This document shows, in pieces, positions 2,800 through 63,869 of a DNA stretch of 64,000 bases. The translations under genes were made by a program, and so were the position numbers. The DNA comes from a virus. The stretch is from the IMG/VR virus record IMGVR_UViG_3300017991_000075, positions 1 to 64,000 of that record, one strand, 5' to 3'. The notes beneath the pieces were generated by a model. It had not been told where the DNA came from and searched no databases. It was given only the letters and a program-made list of their open reading frames with translations. The stretch's first letter is position 1; every line of letters starts with the position of its first letter.

Positions 2800-3174
2800 C
2801 TACGATTTGTCCTCGATCTTGTCCTGGCTAATCAGGACGGGTGGAGGCGGGTGCCTTCCTTTATGGGGGACCTTACACCAATACCCCTCAGAATTGATAG
2901 CAGGCTCCAATACCGTCAACACAGTCCCGGCGGGGATCGGTCTACCATCGACCACTACGCGATCGGAAAGCTTCACCTGCTTAGGCAGGGCCGTGAGAGG
3001 GTGAACGAAACGTCCTTCTTTGGGAGATACCTGGCCGCACAAGAAGTTATCGCCCTTGTATCGAAGGATAAGGCAGCCATCGCACTCTTCCCACGGTAAT
3101 TCCTCCGTAGGAAATCTACCGGCGATCTCGTACTCGCCGCGTAGACAATTACGCTGCCTCTTTCGTCTTGGCAT
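2800..3174 (-). CDS. Hypothetical protein
   Basis: 124-aa ORF tightly packed in the minus-strand gene run. Confidence 0.6.
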   Translation of the reverse strand: MPRRKRQRNCLRGEYEIAGRFPTEELPWEECDGCLILRYKGDNFLCGQVSPKEGRFVHPLTALPKQVKLSDRVVVDGRPIPAGTVLTVLEPAINSEGYWCKVPHKGRHPPPPVLISQDKIEDKS

Positions 3175-3437
3175 CAGAATCGGATCTCGTCATCGTTGAG
3201 GTCCCTATAGTAGACCCCACCCTCTTCATAAGCGTCTTCCACCCTGGAGCAGCATCTACCGAACTGATGCCCTTCAGGGAACTGCGGATGTTTGGATTTC
3301 ACCACACGAAATACTCTGTGGTTCTGACGAGATCCGTCAGAAATGCAGCGAGCCACCACATTCCGTGGTGGCTGCCATGGTTTGCAGTCCTGTCCGGGAA
3401 TATCCGGTGAAAACGCTACGAGGTCTCCTCCTTGCAT
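3174..3437 (-). CDS. Hypothetical protein (likely start MQGG at 3437)
   Basis: Fills the gap between neighbours; GAGG upstream of the ATG; stop overlaps the next start. Confidence 0.5.
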   Translation of the reverse strand: MQGGDLVAFSPDIPGQDCKPWQPPRNVVARCISDGSRQNHRVFRVVKSKHPQFPEGHQFGRCCSRVEDAYEEGGVYYRDLNDDEIRF

Positions 3438-4297
3438 ATGTGCCTCATCGTTACAGGATCGAAGAACGGTCTCAAGTCGAAGTACACCATAGGCCAACAA
3501 ATTGTGTTGTCCAGGTTCGACCTGTCAAAAAGCCATGATAGCAATTTCGAATCAGGATGCACCTGTTCGACTTCAAGAAACCCGGCGCTGTTCTTTTCAG
3601 TAGGATGTGAATCAGGAACATTCGCTGGCCGCAAGTGTTTTAGATCCTCGATGTCTTCGTTTTCCGTAGCGTCAGAACCAGCCCACAACATCTCAACCTT
3701 GTCGAGAGTCTCGAAACTGTCTTCCTCGACGACAACAAAACAACCACCAACAATACGAGCTTTACGTCGGCATAACATCAGAGAATCCGGATTAGTGATG
3801 GTGTTAGAGAACTTGAACTTGAGAGCCTCATCACCATCCTGAATAATCTCTTCCTCTTCCTTATCAATGAACGATCTCTTGACCGTCTTGTTGTGCTTCT
3901 TCAACTTGTCAGCAGACCATTGTCTCTCACCGCTAACTCGCACGAAACCACTACGAATGTAATAAAGCGATTCACACAGCGTGAACCCTTCGATCAACGA
4001 TACCACCATCCATAGCGGAAGAATCAACGGCCACTCATGCAGCTTGACGTTCTCAACGGCCTCAAGTAGTTTGACAACGCGATGACGCCGTTCACTATCA
4101 GGAGATAGCATGATGTCCATTTGACGTTCCGCTGTGAGAGCTTCTATCTGCTTTTCCTGGCAAACACTCTCCTCAAGAAGATCCGCAAGAAATTCCTGTA
4201 TGTCGGCTTCAGGCCCTACCAGCAAATGGAAACTCTCGTTTGAAAGAGTATCCGCAATACGGAGTGCCTGCTTTGCAAACTTTCTCATGTTCTTCAT
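3416..4297 (-). CDS. Hypothetical protein, possible degenerate S4-like RNA-binding segment
   Basis: 293-aa ORF with AGGAG RBS; ESLYYIRSGFVRVSGE resembles the S4 motif (..EA...I..G.V.V.G). Confidence 0.6.
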   Translation of the reverse strand: MKNMRKFAKQALRIADTLSNESFHLLVGPEADIQEFLADLLEESVCQEKQIEALTAERQMDIMLSPDSERRHRVVKLLEAVENVKLHEWPLILPLWMVVSLIEGFTLCESLYYIRSGFVRVSGERQWSADKLKKHNKTVKRSFIDKEEEEIIQDGDEALKFKFSNTITNPDSLMLCRRKARIVGGCFVVVEEDSFETLDKVEMLWAGSDATENEDIEDLKHLRPANVPDSHPTEKNSAGFLEVEQVHPDSKLLSWLFDRSNLDNTICWPMVYFDLRPFFDPVTMRHICKEETS

Positions 4298-26082: not shown

Positions 26083-26158
26083 AACGGTTTTACCGTTACT
26101 TATGCCCCTTGAACGTTCAAGGGGCATAAGTAACGGCACTACAAATTGTAGTGCCGTT
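26083..26158. repeat. Perfect 44-bp palindrome (26093-26136) chained to two overlapping inverted repeats
   Basis: CCGTTACTTATGCCCCTTGAAC|GTTCAAGGGGCATAAGTAACGG; AACGGCACTACAA-A-TTGTAGTGCCGTT (26132-26158); AACGG-TTTTA-CCGTT (26083-26097). Confidence 0.95.
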
Positions 26159-26185: not shown

Positions 26186-26674
26186 TTATGCCTTATTGAA
26201 AGCATCCGCTATCGCGTCCGTTACTGCCGTTTTTACGGCATCCGCTATAGCGTCCGCGATCGGTAGCATTGCAGAAGCTTCTGCCGTTGCTTCCTTAGTT
26301 GCTTCCTTGGTTGCTTCCTTGGTTGCTTCCTTGGTTGCTTCCTTGGTTGCCTTGCGTTTCGGTGCAAACGTTTCAAGCTTCATTCTGCTATGCGTTACTG
26401 TCAATCCCGCGAAACGTTTTGTTAGTCCAGAAACACGGGTTTTCGCTTCCTTCATCGCTTCCCGTAACGCGGTTTTCGGCAGTCCCGTTAGTGGGAGAAA
26501 ACAAGCTTTCCGCGTTTCCGTATTGCGTTTTGCCTTCGTTGCTCTGAATCCCCAAGCTTGCAAAGTGTTCGTTACTGCTTGGCGTAGTTCGTTGCTTTCC
26601 GATTGAACAAAACACCACAAAAAAGCACGTTCAACAATCGTAGTAACCTTGATACGAGTAACCTTGTTAGCCAT
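26186..26674 (-). CDS. Basic protein with (ATKE)5 repeat; isolated gene with its own promoter
   Basis: 162 aa, AGGAG RBS, strong promoter upstream, hairpins downstream. Confidence 0.7.
   Translation of the reverse strand: MANKVTRIKVTTIVERAFLWCFVQSESNELRQAVTNTLQAWGFRATKAKRNTETRKACFLPLTGLPKTALREAMKEAKTRVSGLTKRFAGLTVTHSRMKLETFAPKRKATKEATKEATKEATKEATKEATAEASAMLPIADAIADAVKTAVTDAIADAFNKA
26286..26350 (-). repeat. 12-bp tandem repeat x5 (GTTGCTTCCTTR)
   Basis: Directly visible; encodes KEAT repeats. Confidence 0.9.
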
Positions 26675-30145: not shown

Positions 30146-30746
30146 TACGAATCCTTCTGACCATTTCAGTAAACTCGGTATCGGCGGCGAACTGCTCGCA
30201 GACTTGTCGCACACCATCCAGGTAACTTCCCTGGAGCTGCCCTTCGTTCAGCAGCTTGATAAACGTTTCATCTGTCGCCAGAAAATAGGGCGACATCCCG
30301 CCAGCACTCATGCGCATCAACAATTCATAGTCGCTACCGAACAGCGCCTGATTCTGTTCAATCAACTGTAGAGTGCAAGTAATATCATTCCGGATCAAGT
30401 CCGCGTAGGTGTCGTTCATCGGGTGGCACTTGTTCAGCGGCTTGTAAGCCCGGTACTGCAAATACTTCGATCTGCAGTCCTGTGTGTTCAGATACTTCGG
30501 GCCTCTGAAGCGGGGCTTCAACCAAGGCACGCAGACTTGCAGGTAATCTTTCGACCAGATCCCCATCGTCAGGCACCACTGAAACATATTGTAAAACGTC
30601 GCGTAGTTCTTGCGCTGTTCGACAGATTTACCGGAACGACGATTGAAGATGTAGACAACGATGCCGTGTGCCTCGTGATACCGGCGCTCGTACAAGTCGA
30701 AGAGAGACCTGATAATCCTGTTCAACTCTTGCTGATCGTACTGCAT
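30114..30746 (-). CDS. Hypothetical protein upstream of the helicase (possible loader)
   Basis: Likely start MQYDQQ at 30746; the longer ORF-track start runs through a terminator and promoter. Confidence 0.6.
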   Translation of the reverse strand: MQYDQQELNRIIRSLFDLYERRYHEAHGIVVYIFNRRSGKSVEQRKNYATFYNMFQWCLTMGIWSKDYLQVCVPWLKPRFRGPKYLNTQDCRSKYLQYRAYKPLNKCHPMNDTYADLIRNDITCTLQLIEQNQALFGSDYELLMRMSAGGMSPYFLATDETFIKLLNEGQLQGSYLDGVRQVCEQFAADTEFTEMVRRIRNEQLRRISKS

Positions 30747-30758
30747 CACAATCTCAAG

Positions 30759-30798
30759 AAAAAACCTCTGGCAGATGCTGTGACCCATCTGCCAGAGG
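30759..30798 (-). terminator. Intrinsic terminator/attenuator in the leader of the helicase-primase operon
   Basis: CCTCTGGCAGATG-GGTCACAG-CATCTGCCAGAGG-TTTTTT (13-bp perfect stem + U6). Confidence 0.8.
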
Positions 30799-30866
30799 CA
30801 CCCCCGTGCGCTAAATGACACGAGTTTATAGCTTCTTGCGCCGGTCACAGGCGGCTTAGATGAAGG

Positions 30867-30933
30867 AAGATACTTTGACACGATAACATGTCAAGAATTT
30901 TTCTGTTGACAGGCCCCGATTTCGTTCTACCTT
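30867..30933. promoter_or_regulatory. Back-to-back promoters: leftward TTGACA-N16-TATCTT (30894-30867), rightward TTGACA-N16-TACCTT (30906-30933)
   Basis: Perfect -35 boxes at the strand switch; an inverted TTGACA-N8-TGTCAA (30875-30894) overlaps the leftward one. Confidence 0.7.
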
Positions 30934-31072
30934 TAGTGCAGCTACAGTGCTGCAGTGTACGAGGTTTTTTGATTGAACAGAATTCGGTCGCCCCATCCCT
31001 CGAAGCACTGTAGCTAGTCCTTCCTTGAGCCTCGGCACAAGAGGATGGGGTGGCCTCCGTGACAGGGCCGGG

Positions 31073-31438
31073 ATGCAGTACGACTCTGCGAGTAATGTAC
31101 CGTCAGGACCTCGGACATATTTTCCGAAGGAGATCCCGGCCCATTGTCACATACCTCAATACATCCTCCAGGATCAACGTCTAACTGATTTCGAAAAAAT
31201 CCTATTCGGAAGACTCCGAGGATACGCTGGCGAAAAGCATTACTGCTTCGTCAAAGTCACGACCCTGATGGAGGAACTCTGCAAGTCAAGACGAGTCATC
31301 TATCGTGCGGTCGAATCGCTCGTAAAATTCGGCTACCTTTATAAATACCGCGCACACCCTCGTGCAACTACCAACTACTATTTCATCATCACACCGGAGA
31401 TAGACCTCTGGTTGAATGCAACGTCAAAAAGGGTTTGA
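31073..31438 (+). CDS. Winged-HTH (HTH_36-like) replication initiator/origin-binding protein
   Basis: IPQYILQDQRLTDFEKILFGRL...CFVKVTTLMEELCKSRRVIYRAVESLVKFGYL...TNYY; iterons follow immediately. Confidence 0.75.
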   Translation: MQYDSASNVPSGPRTYFPKEIPAHCHIPQYILQDQRLTDFEKILFGRLRGYAGEKHYCFVKVTTLMEELCKSRRVIYRAVESLVKFGYLYKYRAHPRATTNYYFIITPEIDLWLNATSKRV

Positions 31439-31660
31439 GGTGCCAAAAATGACACCCTTACAAATGCTCTCATCGCAATTTGAGGTGCCAAAAATGGCAC
31501 CTGCCCTTGTGCCAAAAATGGCACCTGTTAGTGTCAAAAATGGCACCTCAAAAGTGTCAAAAATGGCACCTCCTAAAACAAGGACTTATAAACAGGGATT
31601 TCAAACAGGGAGTCTTTTATTCTAAAGAATAAAAGAGCAGCTCGCCTTGCGGCTCGCTGT
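31439..31660. other. Putative replication origin: 5 palindromic iterons GTGYCAAAAATGRCACC plus an AT-rich palindrome
   Basis: Units start at 31440, 31485, 31509, 31531, 31554; TCTTTTATTCT-AA-AGAATAAAAGA at 31613-31636; small GC hairpin after it. Confidence 0.7.
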
Positions 31661-63832: not shown

Positions 63833-63869
63833 GAAAAAGAAACAGGCAGGGAATAAATCCCTGCCTGTT
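63833..63869 (-). terminator. Intrinsic terminator after the putative major tail gene
   Basis: AACAGGCAGGGA-TTTAT-TCCCTGCCTGTT followed by TCTTTTT on the minus strand. Confidence 0.8.

Follow-up and report, generated by a model that had tools for sequence, protein, structure and literature searches.

A probable structured RNA leader with crossing helices ahead of a putative phage replication initiator gene

The window analyzed here is a 64-kb stretch of DNA that forms part of a 99-kb IMG/VR virus record from an uncultivated phage. Near its center, two replication operons diverge from a short intergenic region. The main features of this locus are as follows.

30747-31072: intergenic region of 326 bp separating the divergent replication operons.
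Leftward operon, minus strand: a 210-aa protein of no known family (ATG at 30746), a DnaB-like helicase, and a DnaG-like primase.
30867-30894, minus strand: leftward promoter-like site TTGACA-N16-TATCTT, back to back with the rightward site.
30906-30933, plus strand: rightward promoter-like site TTGACA-N16-TACCTT.
30940-31072, plus strand: predicted untranslated leader of about 133 nt ahead of the initiator AUG at 31073.
31073-31438, plus strand: first gene of the rightward operon, encoding a 121-aa HTH_36 protein.
Remainder of the rightward operon, plus strand: an SF2 helicase, a UvsX-like recombinase, a 5'-3' exonuclease, and an SbcD-like nuclease.
About 31434-31570: five 16-bp palindromic iterons (GTGYCAAAAATGRCAC) directly after the HTH_36 gene, spaced 45, 24, 22, and 23 bp apart.

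For the product of the first rightward gene, Pfam returned HTH_36 only, and PHROGs returned phage replication-initiation and DnaD-like families. The protein is probably an origin-binding replication initiator, as judged from these family matches, and the iteron array, which is placed outside the initiator gene and adjoins an AT-rich stretch on its far side, is probably the origin. The label “replication initiator” is reasonable because it combines the PHROG assignment with the presence of iterons directly after the gene. The initial annotation had proposed that the intergenic DNA encodes a plus-strand RNA leader for a replication initiator, and these gene assignments agree with that proposal. 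A second contig carries an identical initiator.

Sites of the form TTGACA-N15-18-TAYCTT occur twice in the 64 kb, compared with 0.09 expected, and both are in this intergenic region. Based on the promoter consensus, the predicted transcription start site (TSS) of the rightward operon is A30940, the 7th base past the -10 hexamer. The leader as originally drawn presupposed a TSS no farther downstream than 30951, and the predicted position is compatible with it. The leader transcript would continue into the iterons.

Within the leader, the initial annotation had described two crossing helices, a short upstream open reading frame (uORF), and a competing hairpin. We located the following elements, all on the plus strand.

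30940-30951: 5' arm of helix 1, AGCUACAGUGCU (= AGCTACAGTGCT), the first 12 nt of the predicted transcript.
31004-31015: 3' arm of helix 1, AGCACUGUAGCU, located in the helix 2 loop, 5 nt past the 5' arm of helix 2.
30986-30998: 5' arm of helix 2, GGUCGCCCCAUCC (= GGTCGCCCCATCC).
31043-31055: 3' arm of helix 2, GGAUGGGGUGGCC (= GGATGGGGTGGCC), ending 17 nt before the AUG.
30965-30970: run of six U residues within loop 1.
31045-31062: uORF of 5 codons (ATG GGG TGG CCT CCG TGA, encoding MGWPP), ending 10 nt before the AUG.
31052-31069: competing hairpin GGCCU/GGGCC.

Both helices were confirmed by direct inspection of the sequence and were recovered independently by an inverted-repeat search of the window. 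Helix 1 comprises 12 bp and is a perfect reverse complement, and helix 2 comprises 13 bp with two internal G-U pairs, no mismatches, and a 44-nt loop. Because the order of the strands is helix 1 5' arm, helix 2 5' arm, helix 1 3' arm, and helix 2 3' arm, the two helices cross. The uORF and the initiator ATG are also present where the initial annotation had placed them. The competing hairpin exists as well, but it is weak, with 5 bp that include one G-U pair and an 8-nt loop.

These helices are unusual for the DNA in which they reside. In the window, seven inverted repeats are perfect over at least 12 bp and have a loop of up to 100 nt, compared with 0.27 expected, and helix 1 is one of them. 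The other six correspond to palindromes near 26.1 kb, the terminator of the left leader, the iterons, and a hairpin at 63.8 kb. The palindromes are chained (26093-26158), and the hairpin has a short loop (63841-63869). No other copy of any helix arm is found anywhere in the window. When the window leader was subjected to 1,000 dinucleotide shuffles, a stem matching helix 2 arose in one shuffle and a stem matching helix 1 in none.

Nested folding with RNAfold predicts either helix 1 or helix 2, according to the ends chosen for the folded sequence. The two nested states are nearly iso-energetic in the window, at -58.4 kcal/mol with helix 1 versus -57.8 kcal/mol with helix 2, and summing both helices and subtracting a typical pseudoknot penalty gives an energy range similar to that of the nested states. 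Because these values fall in the same range, co-existence of the helices and switching between them are both plausible. The minimum free energy z-score of the region is modest (-2.0). The sense strand folds better than the antisense strand by 0.2-7 kcal/mol, a difference that discriminates only weakly between the strands, and z-scores do not settle the strand either.

Relatives of this phage proved to be distant. A nucleotide search of 50,697 phage records gave no match, no close relatives emerged when the HTH, SF2, and DnaB proteins were each used singly to search phage, viral, and genome collections, and a scan of genome contigs found no relatives. Alignment-based searches yielded the records L002 to L005 and L008, which represent four further lineages. 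Additional scans with alignments of the 210-aa protein, the HTH protein, and the UvsX-like protein returned only previously recovered records. The relatives compare with the window as follows.

L005 (metagenome contig): SF2 helicase 54% identical; iteron array at 3777-3816.
L008: SF2 helicase 53% and DnaB 47% identical; iteron array at 2602-2676.
L004: SF2 helicase 46% identical; iteron array at 3756-3795.
L002/L003: SF2 helicase 40% identical.

Gene order in L005, L008, and L004 is the same as in the window, with DnaB and the unknown protein encoded leftward and the HTH gene rightward, followed by the iteron array. Initiators across the compared phages are 22-36% identical. In every one of the four phages (these three and the window), the HTH_36 gene is immediately followed by an iteron array that has its own repeat sequence and a spacing of about 20-23 bp. 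L005, L008, and L004 also carry back-to-back TTGACA-N16-18-TAnnnT promoters. In three phages, the two -35 boxes form a palindrome, TGTCAA...TTGACA (window, 30875-30911; L008, 3250-3215; L004, 3113-3126), which is a perfect 13-bp inverted repeat in L008 and has the boxes 2 bp apart in L004. This palindrome may be a shared operator for both promoters.

The L002/L003 lineage, the most distant one, is arranged differently. Here the HTH gene is separated from the rightward promoter by an HNH endonuclease gene (3054-3391), which stands in place of a long structured leader. The leader element is therefore dispensable in this lineage. A hairpin followed by a U-rich run lies just upstream of the rightward promoter in these two records.

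The four remaining leaders span about 131-165 nt between the predicted +1 and the AUG. They do not align with one another, and TTGACA alone is invariant. Regardless, a long-range stem is the strongest one in each of the four leaders and occupies an equivalent place, ending 15-21 nt before the AUG. The helices equivalent to helix 2, and the number of dinucleotide shuffles per 1,000 that yield a stem as good, are as follows.

Window: GGUCGCCCCAUCC / GGAUGGGGUGGCC, 13 bp, loop of 44 nt; 1 shuffle.
L005: CCGGGCCUCU / AGAGGCCCGG, 10 bp, loop of 37 nt; 1 shuffle.
L004: UGCACCGCAGCCAC / GUGGCUGCGGUGUG, 14 bp, loop of 39 nt; 0 shuffles.
L008: AACCCGCCUGCC / GGCAGGCGGGUU, 12 bp, loop of 47 nt; 0 shuffles.

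Helix 1 has counterparts in two relatives, so that three of the four leaders carry it. In each of the three, the helix starts 5-6 nt past the -10 hexamer and pairs inside the helix 2 loop.

Window: 12 bp, as listed above; 0 shuffles as good per 1,000.
L008: UUGCGACUCC / GGAGUCGCAA, 10 bp, perfect; 5 shuffles as good per 1,000.
L005: UGGCUGAUC / GGUCAGCCA, 9 bp; 16 shuffles as good per 1,000.

An inner helix lengthens the helix 1 pairing by 11 bp in L008 and by 8 bp in L005, to a total of about 17-21 bp. The 3' arms of helices 1 and 2 abut without a spacer in L005, which makes a quasi-continuous 19-bp helix. As in the window, the nested states of L008 are close in energy, at -71.2 kcal/mol with helix 1 versus -69.9 kcal/mol with helix 2. 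No significant helix 1 was found in L004, where the best candidate is a 6-bp pairing of UUCCGG with the CCGGAA apical loop of a hairpin located inside the helix 2 loop.

Two further controls point the same way. First, in a cross-phage matrix of duplexes between 5' ends and loops, the cognate combination had the best energy in its row and column for the window, L008, and L005. Second, the roughly 350 kb of phage DNA retrieved contain 29 promoter-like sites, and when these are ranked for a 5'-terminal long-range helix, the three phages take places 1, 2, and 4.

The initial annotation had proposed covariation in homologues as a check, and both helices are kept as structure in the relatives, with helix 2 in four of four and helix 1 in three of four leaders whose sequences are unalignable. 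This is the pattern generally expected of a conserved RNA, although structural conservation here rests on four lineages. As far as these comparisons reach, it is structure rather than sequence that appears to be under selection, and we are confident that the leader harbors a genuine, selected RNA structure. The loop lengths in the three phages with helix 1 vary widely (L2 of 5/28/21 nt and L3 of 27/0/16 nt), so no common three-dimensional geometry can be claimed. This variability also disfavors a precise ligand-binding or catalytic fold and favors a function that depends on pairing. An HDV-like ribozyme, which has a similar strand order, was considered and rejected because the 5-nt L2 is too short for P3, there are no conserved core nucleotides, and there is no Rfam hit.

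It is extremely improbable that the helices arose by chance or are a neutral remnant of the inverted duplication that also gave both divergent genes the same first 12 nt. Relics of duplication are indeed present in the intergenic region. Both divergent first genes open with the identical 12 nt GATGCAGTACGA (MQYD), at 30736-30747 and 31072-31083, and this shared start was not found in the relatives. In addition, positions 30961-30984 of the right leader are a shortened inverted copy of the GAGGTTTTTT...TTGAACAG segment of the left leader (30714-30768), and the GAGGTTTTTT at the U6 run of the right leader is an inverted copy of the terminator tail of the left leader. The identical gene starts and the inverted copy are probably inverted-duplication relics. 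However, neutral origins do not account for the shuffle statistics or for a topology that is kept with unrelated sequences in independent lineages.

The same relics bear on the U6 run at 30965-30970. Together with a hairpin, at 30930-30970, it was considered as an early terminator, but such a hairpin requires bases upstream of the predicted TSS, and no stable hairpin precedes the run in the predicted transcript. Because of this requirement and the inverted copy, the run is better read as a relic of inverted duplication.

The repeats might instead act as DNA, either as operators for looping regulators or as single-stranded hairpins near the origin that serve as priming or loading signals. The site, flanked by divergent replication operons and with the iteron origin 370 bp away, would suit such elements, as would the palindrome formed by the -35 boxes. 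We nevertheless regard a DNA-level role as highly unlikely. There are two crossing repeat pairs, and their internal G-U pairs become A-C mismatches on the other strand; on the sense strand, the nine helices examined across the phages total 99 bp with 6 G-U pairs and no mismatches. The helix arms are also unlike the iterons of the same phage, the spacing of the helix 1 arms varies (64, 96, and 111 bp), and the 5' arm falls at the predicted transcript start in three phages.

The features near the start codon speak to a mechanism that the initial annotation had suggested by analogy with plasmids of the IncI/IncB type. For IncI-alpha and IncB replicons (ColIb-P9 repZ and pMU720 repA), PMC8053102 describes rep control by a leader peptide, an activating pseudoknot, and an antisense RNA, and refers these findings to Asano & Mizobuchi 1998 and Praszkier & Pittard 2002. 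In the phage, translation of the uORF would open helix 2 or the small hairpin, and a pseudoknot would activate initiator translation, with an antisense RNA perhaps working against it. Copy-number-like replication control is conjecture here. The resemblance lies in the long-range pseudoknot of crossing helices within an untranslated leader before a replication initiator, in a uORF that begins within the 3' arm of helix 2 and stops shortly before the AUG, and in a 6-codon, GUG-started frame at the equivalent place in L004.

Several observations count against this mechanism, which we consider very unlikely. The only Shine-Dalgarno (SD)-like sequence for the uORF, AGAGG, abuts its AUG with zero spacing, there is no equivalent uORF in L005 or L008, and the L004 frame has no SD. 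A conserved, coupled leader peptide is thus missing. The 3' arm of helix 1 and helix 2 end 57 and 17 nt from the initiator AUG, respectively, with both the SD and the AUG outside them, so the helices make no contact with the ribosome-binding site (RBS) and the pseudoknot partner is not adjacent to it. Consensus scans of the four phages found no minus-strand promoter-like site within the leader, although a weak or non-sigma-70 promoter would escape such scans. A toggle between the 5' domain and the start region was also considered: complementarity between these regions does not exceed that of shuffles in three of the four phages (the window, L008, and L004), and only L005 is borderline (a 9-bp match, with 32-72 of 1,000 shuffles as good), so the start-codon toggle model was rejected as a general feature.

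Further differences from the IncI/IncB systems extend beyond the start region. The initiator is of the HTH_36 rather than the RepZ/RepA type, the iteron origin is external, and the phage is of a lytic type. The helices are much longer (9-14 bp), and the pairing takes the extreme 5' terminus of the transcript as its upstream partner. Three of the four defining features of IncI/IncB control are therefore absent here (the coupled leader peptide, the RBS-adjacent partner, and the initiator family). A search of the 64 kb against Rfam, with its self-cleaving ribozyme and riboswitch families, gave no hit at the gathering score and only two chance hits to miRNA models at E<=10. Given an unconserved uORF, promoter scans that revealed no antisense promoter, and the lack of a match in Rfam, the analogy is only a loose one.

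On balance, and with modest conviction, we favor the view that the leader is a new cis-acting RNA that sequesters its own 5' end and acts on the initiator operon by attenuation or gating. In the predicted transcript, the initial 12 nt could pair inside the loop of the 13-bp helix 2, which stops 17 nt short of the AUG. Nearly the whole leader would thereby be tied up, either as a long-range pseudoknot or as two alternative nested folds of nearly equal energy. During transcription, helix 1 would form first. Helix 2 would serve as a leader attenuator or clamp. Capture of the loop by the transcript 5' end may hide that end from 5'-end-dependent decay and may also modulate formation of helix 2. Together, both effects would set the flux of full-length transcripts into the initiator gene and onward across the iteron origin.

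The relatives supply a hint of attenuation. A U-rich run follows helix 2 immediately in L005 (UUCUUUUA), L004 (UGUUUUUG), and L008 (UUUGUCAUUUUU), and is itself followed by a weak SD and the AUG, such that helix 2 and the U tract would resemble an intrinsic terminator with a large structured loop. Intrinsic terminators consist of a GC-rich stem that closes a loop of about 3-10 nt, with a U tract directly on its 3' side. Helix 2 departs from this definition in every leader: in the window it has a 44-nt loop and the tail UCCGUGAC, which contains no U tract, and in the relatives the tails are U-rich but the loops measure 37-47 nt, far outside the range of normal intrinsic terminators. These loop sizes and the tail of the window copy count against the attenuator reading. 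Because no U tract follows helix 2 in the window, an attenuator role may be weak or absent there, and a role in stability or organization may dominate. The window copy may have lost its U tract or never had one.

These points also bear on whether the leader is purely a stability or processing element, in which 5' pairing would protect the transcript from 5'-end-dependent RNases or the stacked helices (19-25 bp) would form an RNase III site. RNase III cleavage matures the early mRNAs of T7 and the N leader of lambda. Such a role would fit a helix 1 that begins at the predicted +1 in three phages and the quasi-continuous helix of L005, and termination cannot be the universal role because the window lacks the U tract. 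However, a local 5' hairpin would suffice for protection, the capture of the helix 2 loop and the U tracts of the relatives would go unexplained, and the variable junction geometry speaks against a defined RNase III substrate. A purely protective or processing function is unlikely in our estimation.

Returning to the gating reading, the opposite leader has a comparable design. The leftward leader (about 30758-30861, minus strand) contains a terminator-like hairpin of 14 bp (30799-30764) followed by U6. This hairpin ends 17 nt before the leftward AUG and conforms to the definition of an intrinsic terminator. Its 8-nt loop, GGUCACAG, is exactly complementary to CUGUGACC (30850-30843), which is near the 5' end of the leader. 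Likewise, the leftward leader of L008 (about 3245-3424, plus strand) has an 11-bp hairpin with a U-rich tail, and 8 nt of the hairpin loop are complementary to a downstream segment of the leader. A strong start-proximal helix whose loop is complementary to a distal leader segment is found in five of eight leaders.

These observations raise the tentative idea of “loop capture,” a new form of attenuation by RNA only, in which the 5' end (right leader) or a distal segment (left leader) pairs with the loop of a terminator or clamp helix and decides whether that helix forms. We rate this generalization as rather doubtful. If it operated on both divergent operons, loop capture would gate the initiator, the helicase and primase, and transcription into the iteron origin, and an early phage factor might intervene by releasing the 5' segment or by blocking it.

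Other sequences in and around the leftward leaders deserve mention. An iteron-like palindrome, GTGCGCTAAATGACAC (30806-30821), forms the middle hairpin of the leftward leader in the window; the initiator may bind it, which would tie helicase and primase expression to origin binding. One 13-nt sequence, TGATCGTAGATAG, occurs in the otherwise unalignable leftward leaders of both L005 and L008 (about 3060-3075 and about 3370-3385, respectively) and is absent from the window. Elsewhere, positions 26186-26674 (minus strand) encode a Lys/Arg-rich protein of 162 aa that contains a (KEAT)5 repeat and has no assigned family. To propose that this protein is an RNA-binding early regulator of structured leaders would be pure speculation.

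Overall, the sequence comparisons indicate that the leader is very probably a real regulatory RNA of an uncatalogued kind. Structured leaders that control replication initiators are textbook examples of plasmid regulation, and to our knowledge they have hardly been described for phages. The architecture is unusual in that the 5' end of an mRNA would be locked into the loop of a start-proximal helix, with a similar loop-capture design in the opposite replication operon. If functional, the element would link gene expression to the firing of the adjacent iteron origin, and it would offer a compact and easily mutable model for the effects of long-range pseudoknots on termination, decay, or translation.

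Several well-studied systems beyond IncI/IncB invite comparison. The rep leaders of pT181, pIP501, and pAMbeta1 undergo transcription attenuation driven by antisense RNA. In pT181 and pIP501, a pre-emptor pairs with the 5' arm of the terminator, and the countertranscript frees the terminator. The relatives of our phage likewise place a terminator-like helix and a U tract upstream of the initiator gene, and an upstream leader segment is present whose pairing could decide whether the helix forms. In contrast to the plasmid leaders, the 5' segment here pairs with the loop rather than with the 5' arm of the terminator, consensus scans found no promoter for a countertranscript, and the window copy has no U tract.

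Among phages, HK022 putL/putR and lambda nutL/nutR are cis-acting antitermination RNAs or sites that serve both divergent early operons. Each put site consists of two adjacent stem-loops, whereas nut includes a small boxB hairpin. Both divergent operons here also begin with structured leaders and terminator-like hairpins, but there is no similarity in sequence or fold to put or nut, no obvious boxA or boxB was seen on inspection of the window sequence by eye, and an antiterminator protein was not identified.

Two additional systems involve the extreme 5' end of the mRNA. The T4 gene 32 mRNA carries a compact H-type 5' pseudoknot operator that is recognized by gp32. Like it, the phage leader belongs to a replication gene and has its pseudoknot right at the 5' terminus, and in the relatives a U-rich stretch runs to the RBS; it differs in having long helices and large, variable loops, and nothing in it implies a binding protein. 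mRNA stabilizers of the E. coli ompA type are 5'-terminal stem-loops. Pairing in the phage leaders similarly starts at the 5' end, or 1-2 nt from it, but the partner is located 52-100 nt downstream inside another helix rather than in a local hairpin. The element described here thus has one or two traits of each of these systems and is a member of none.
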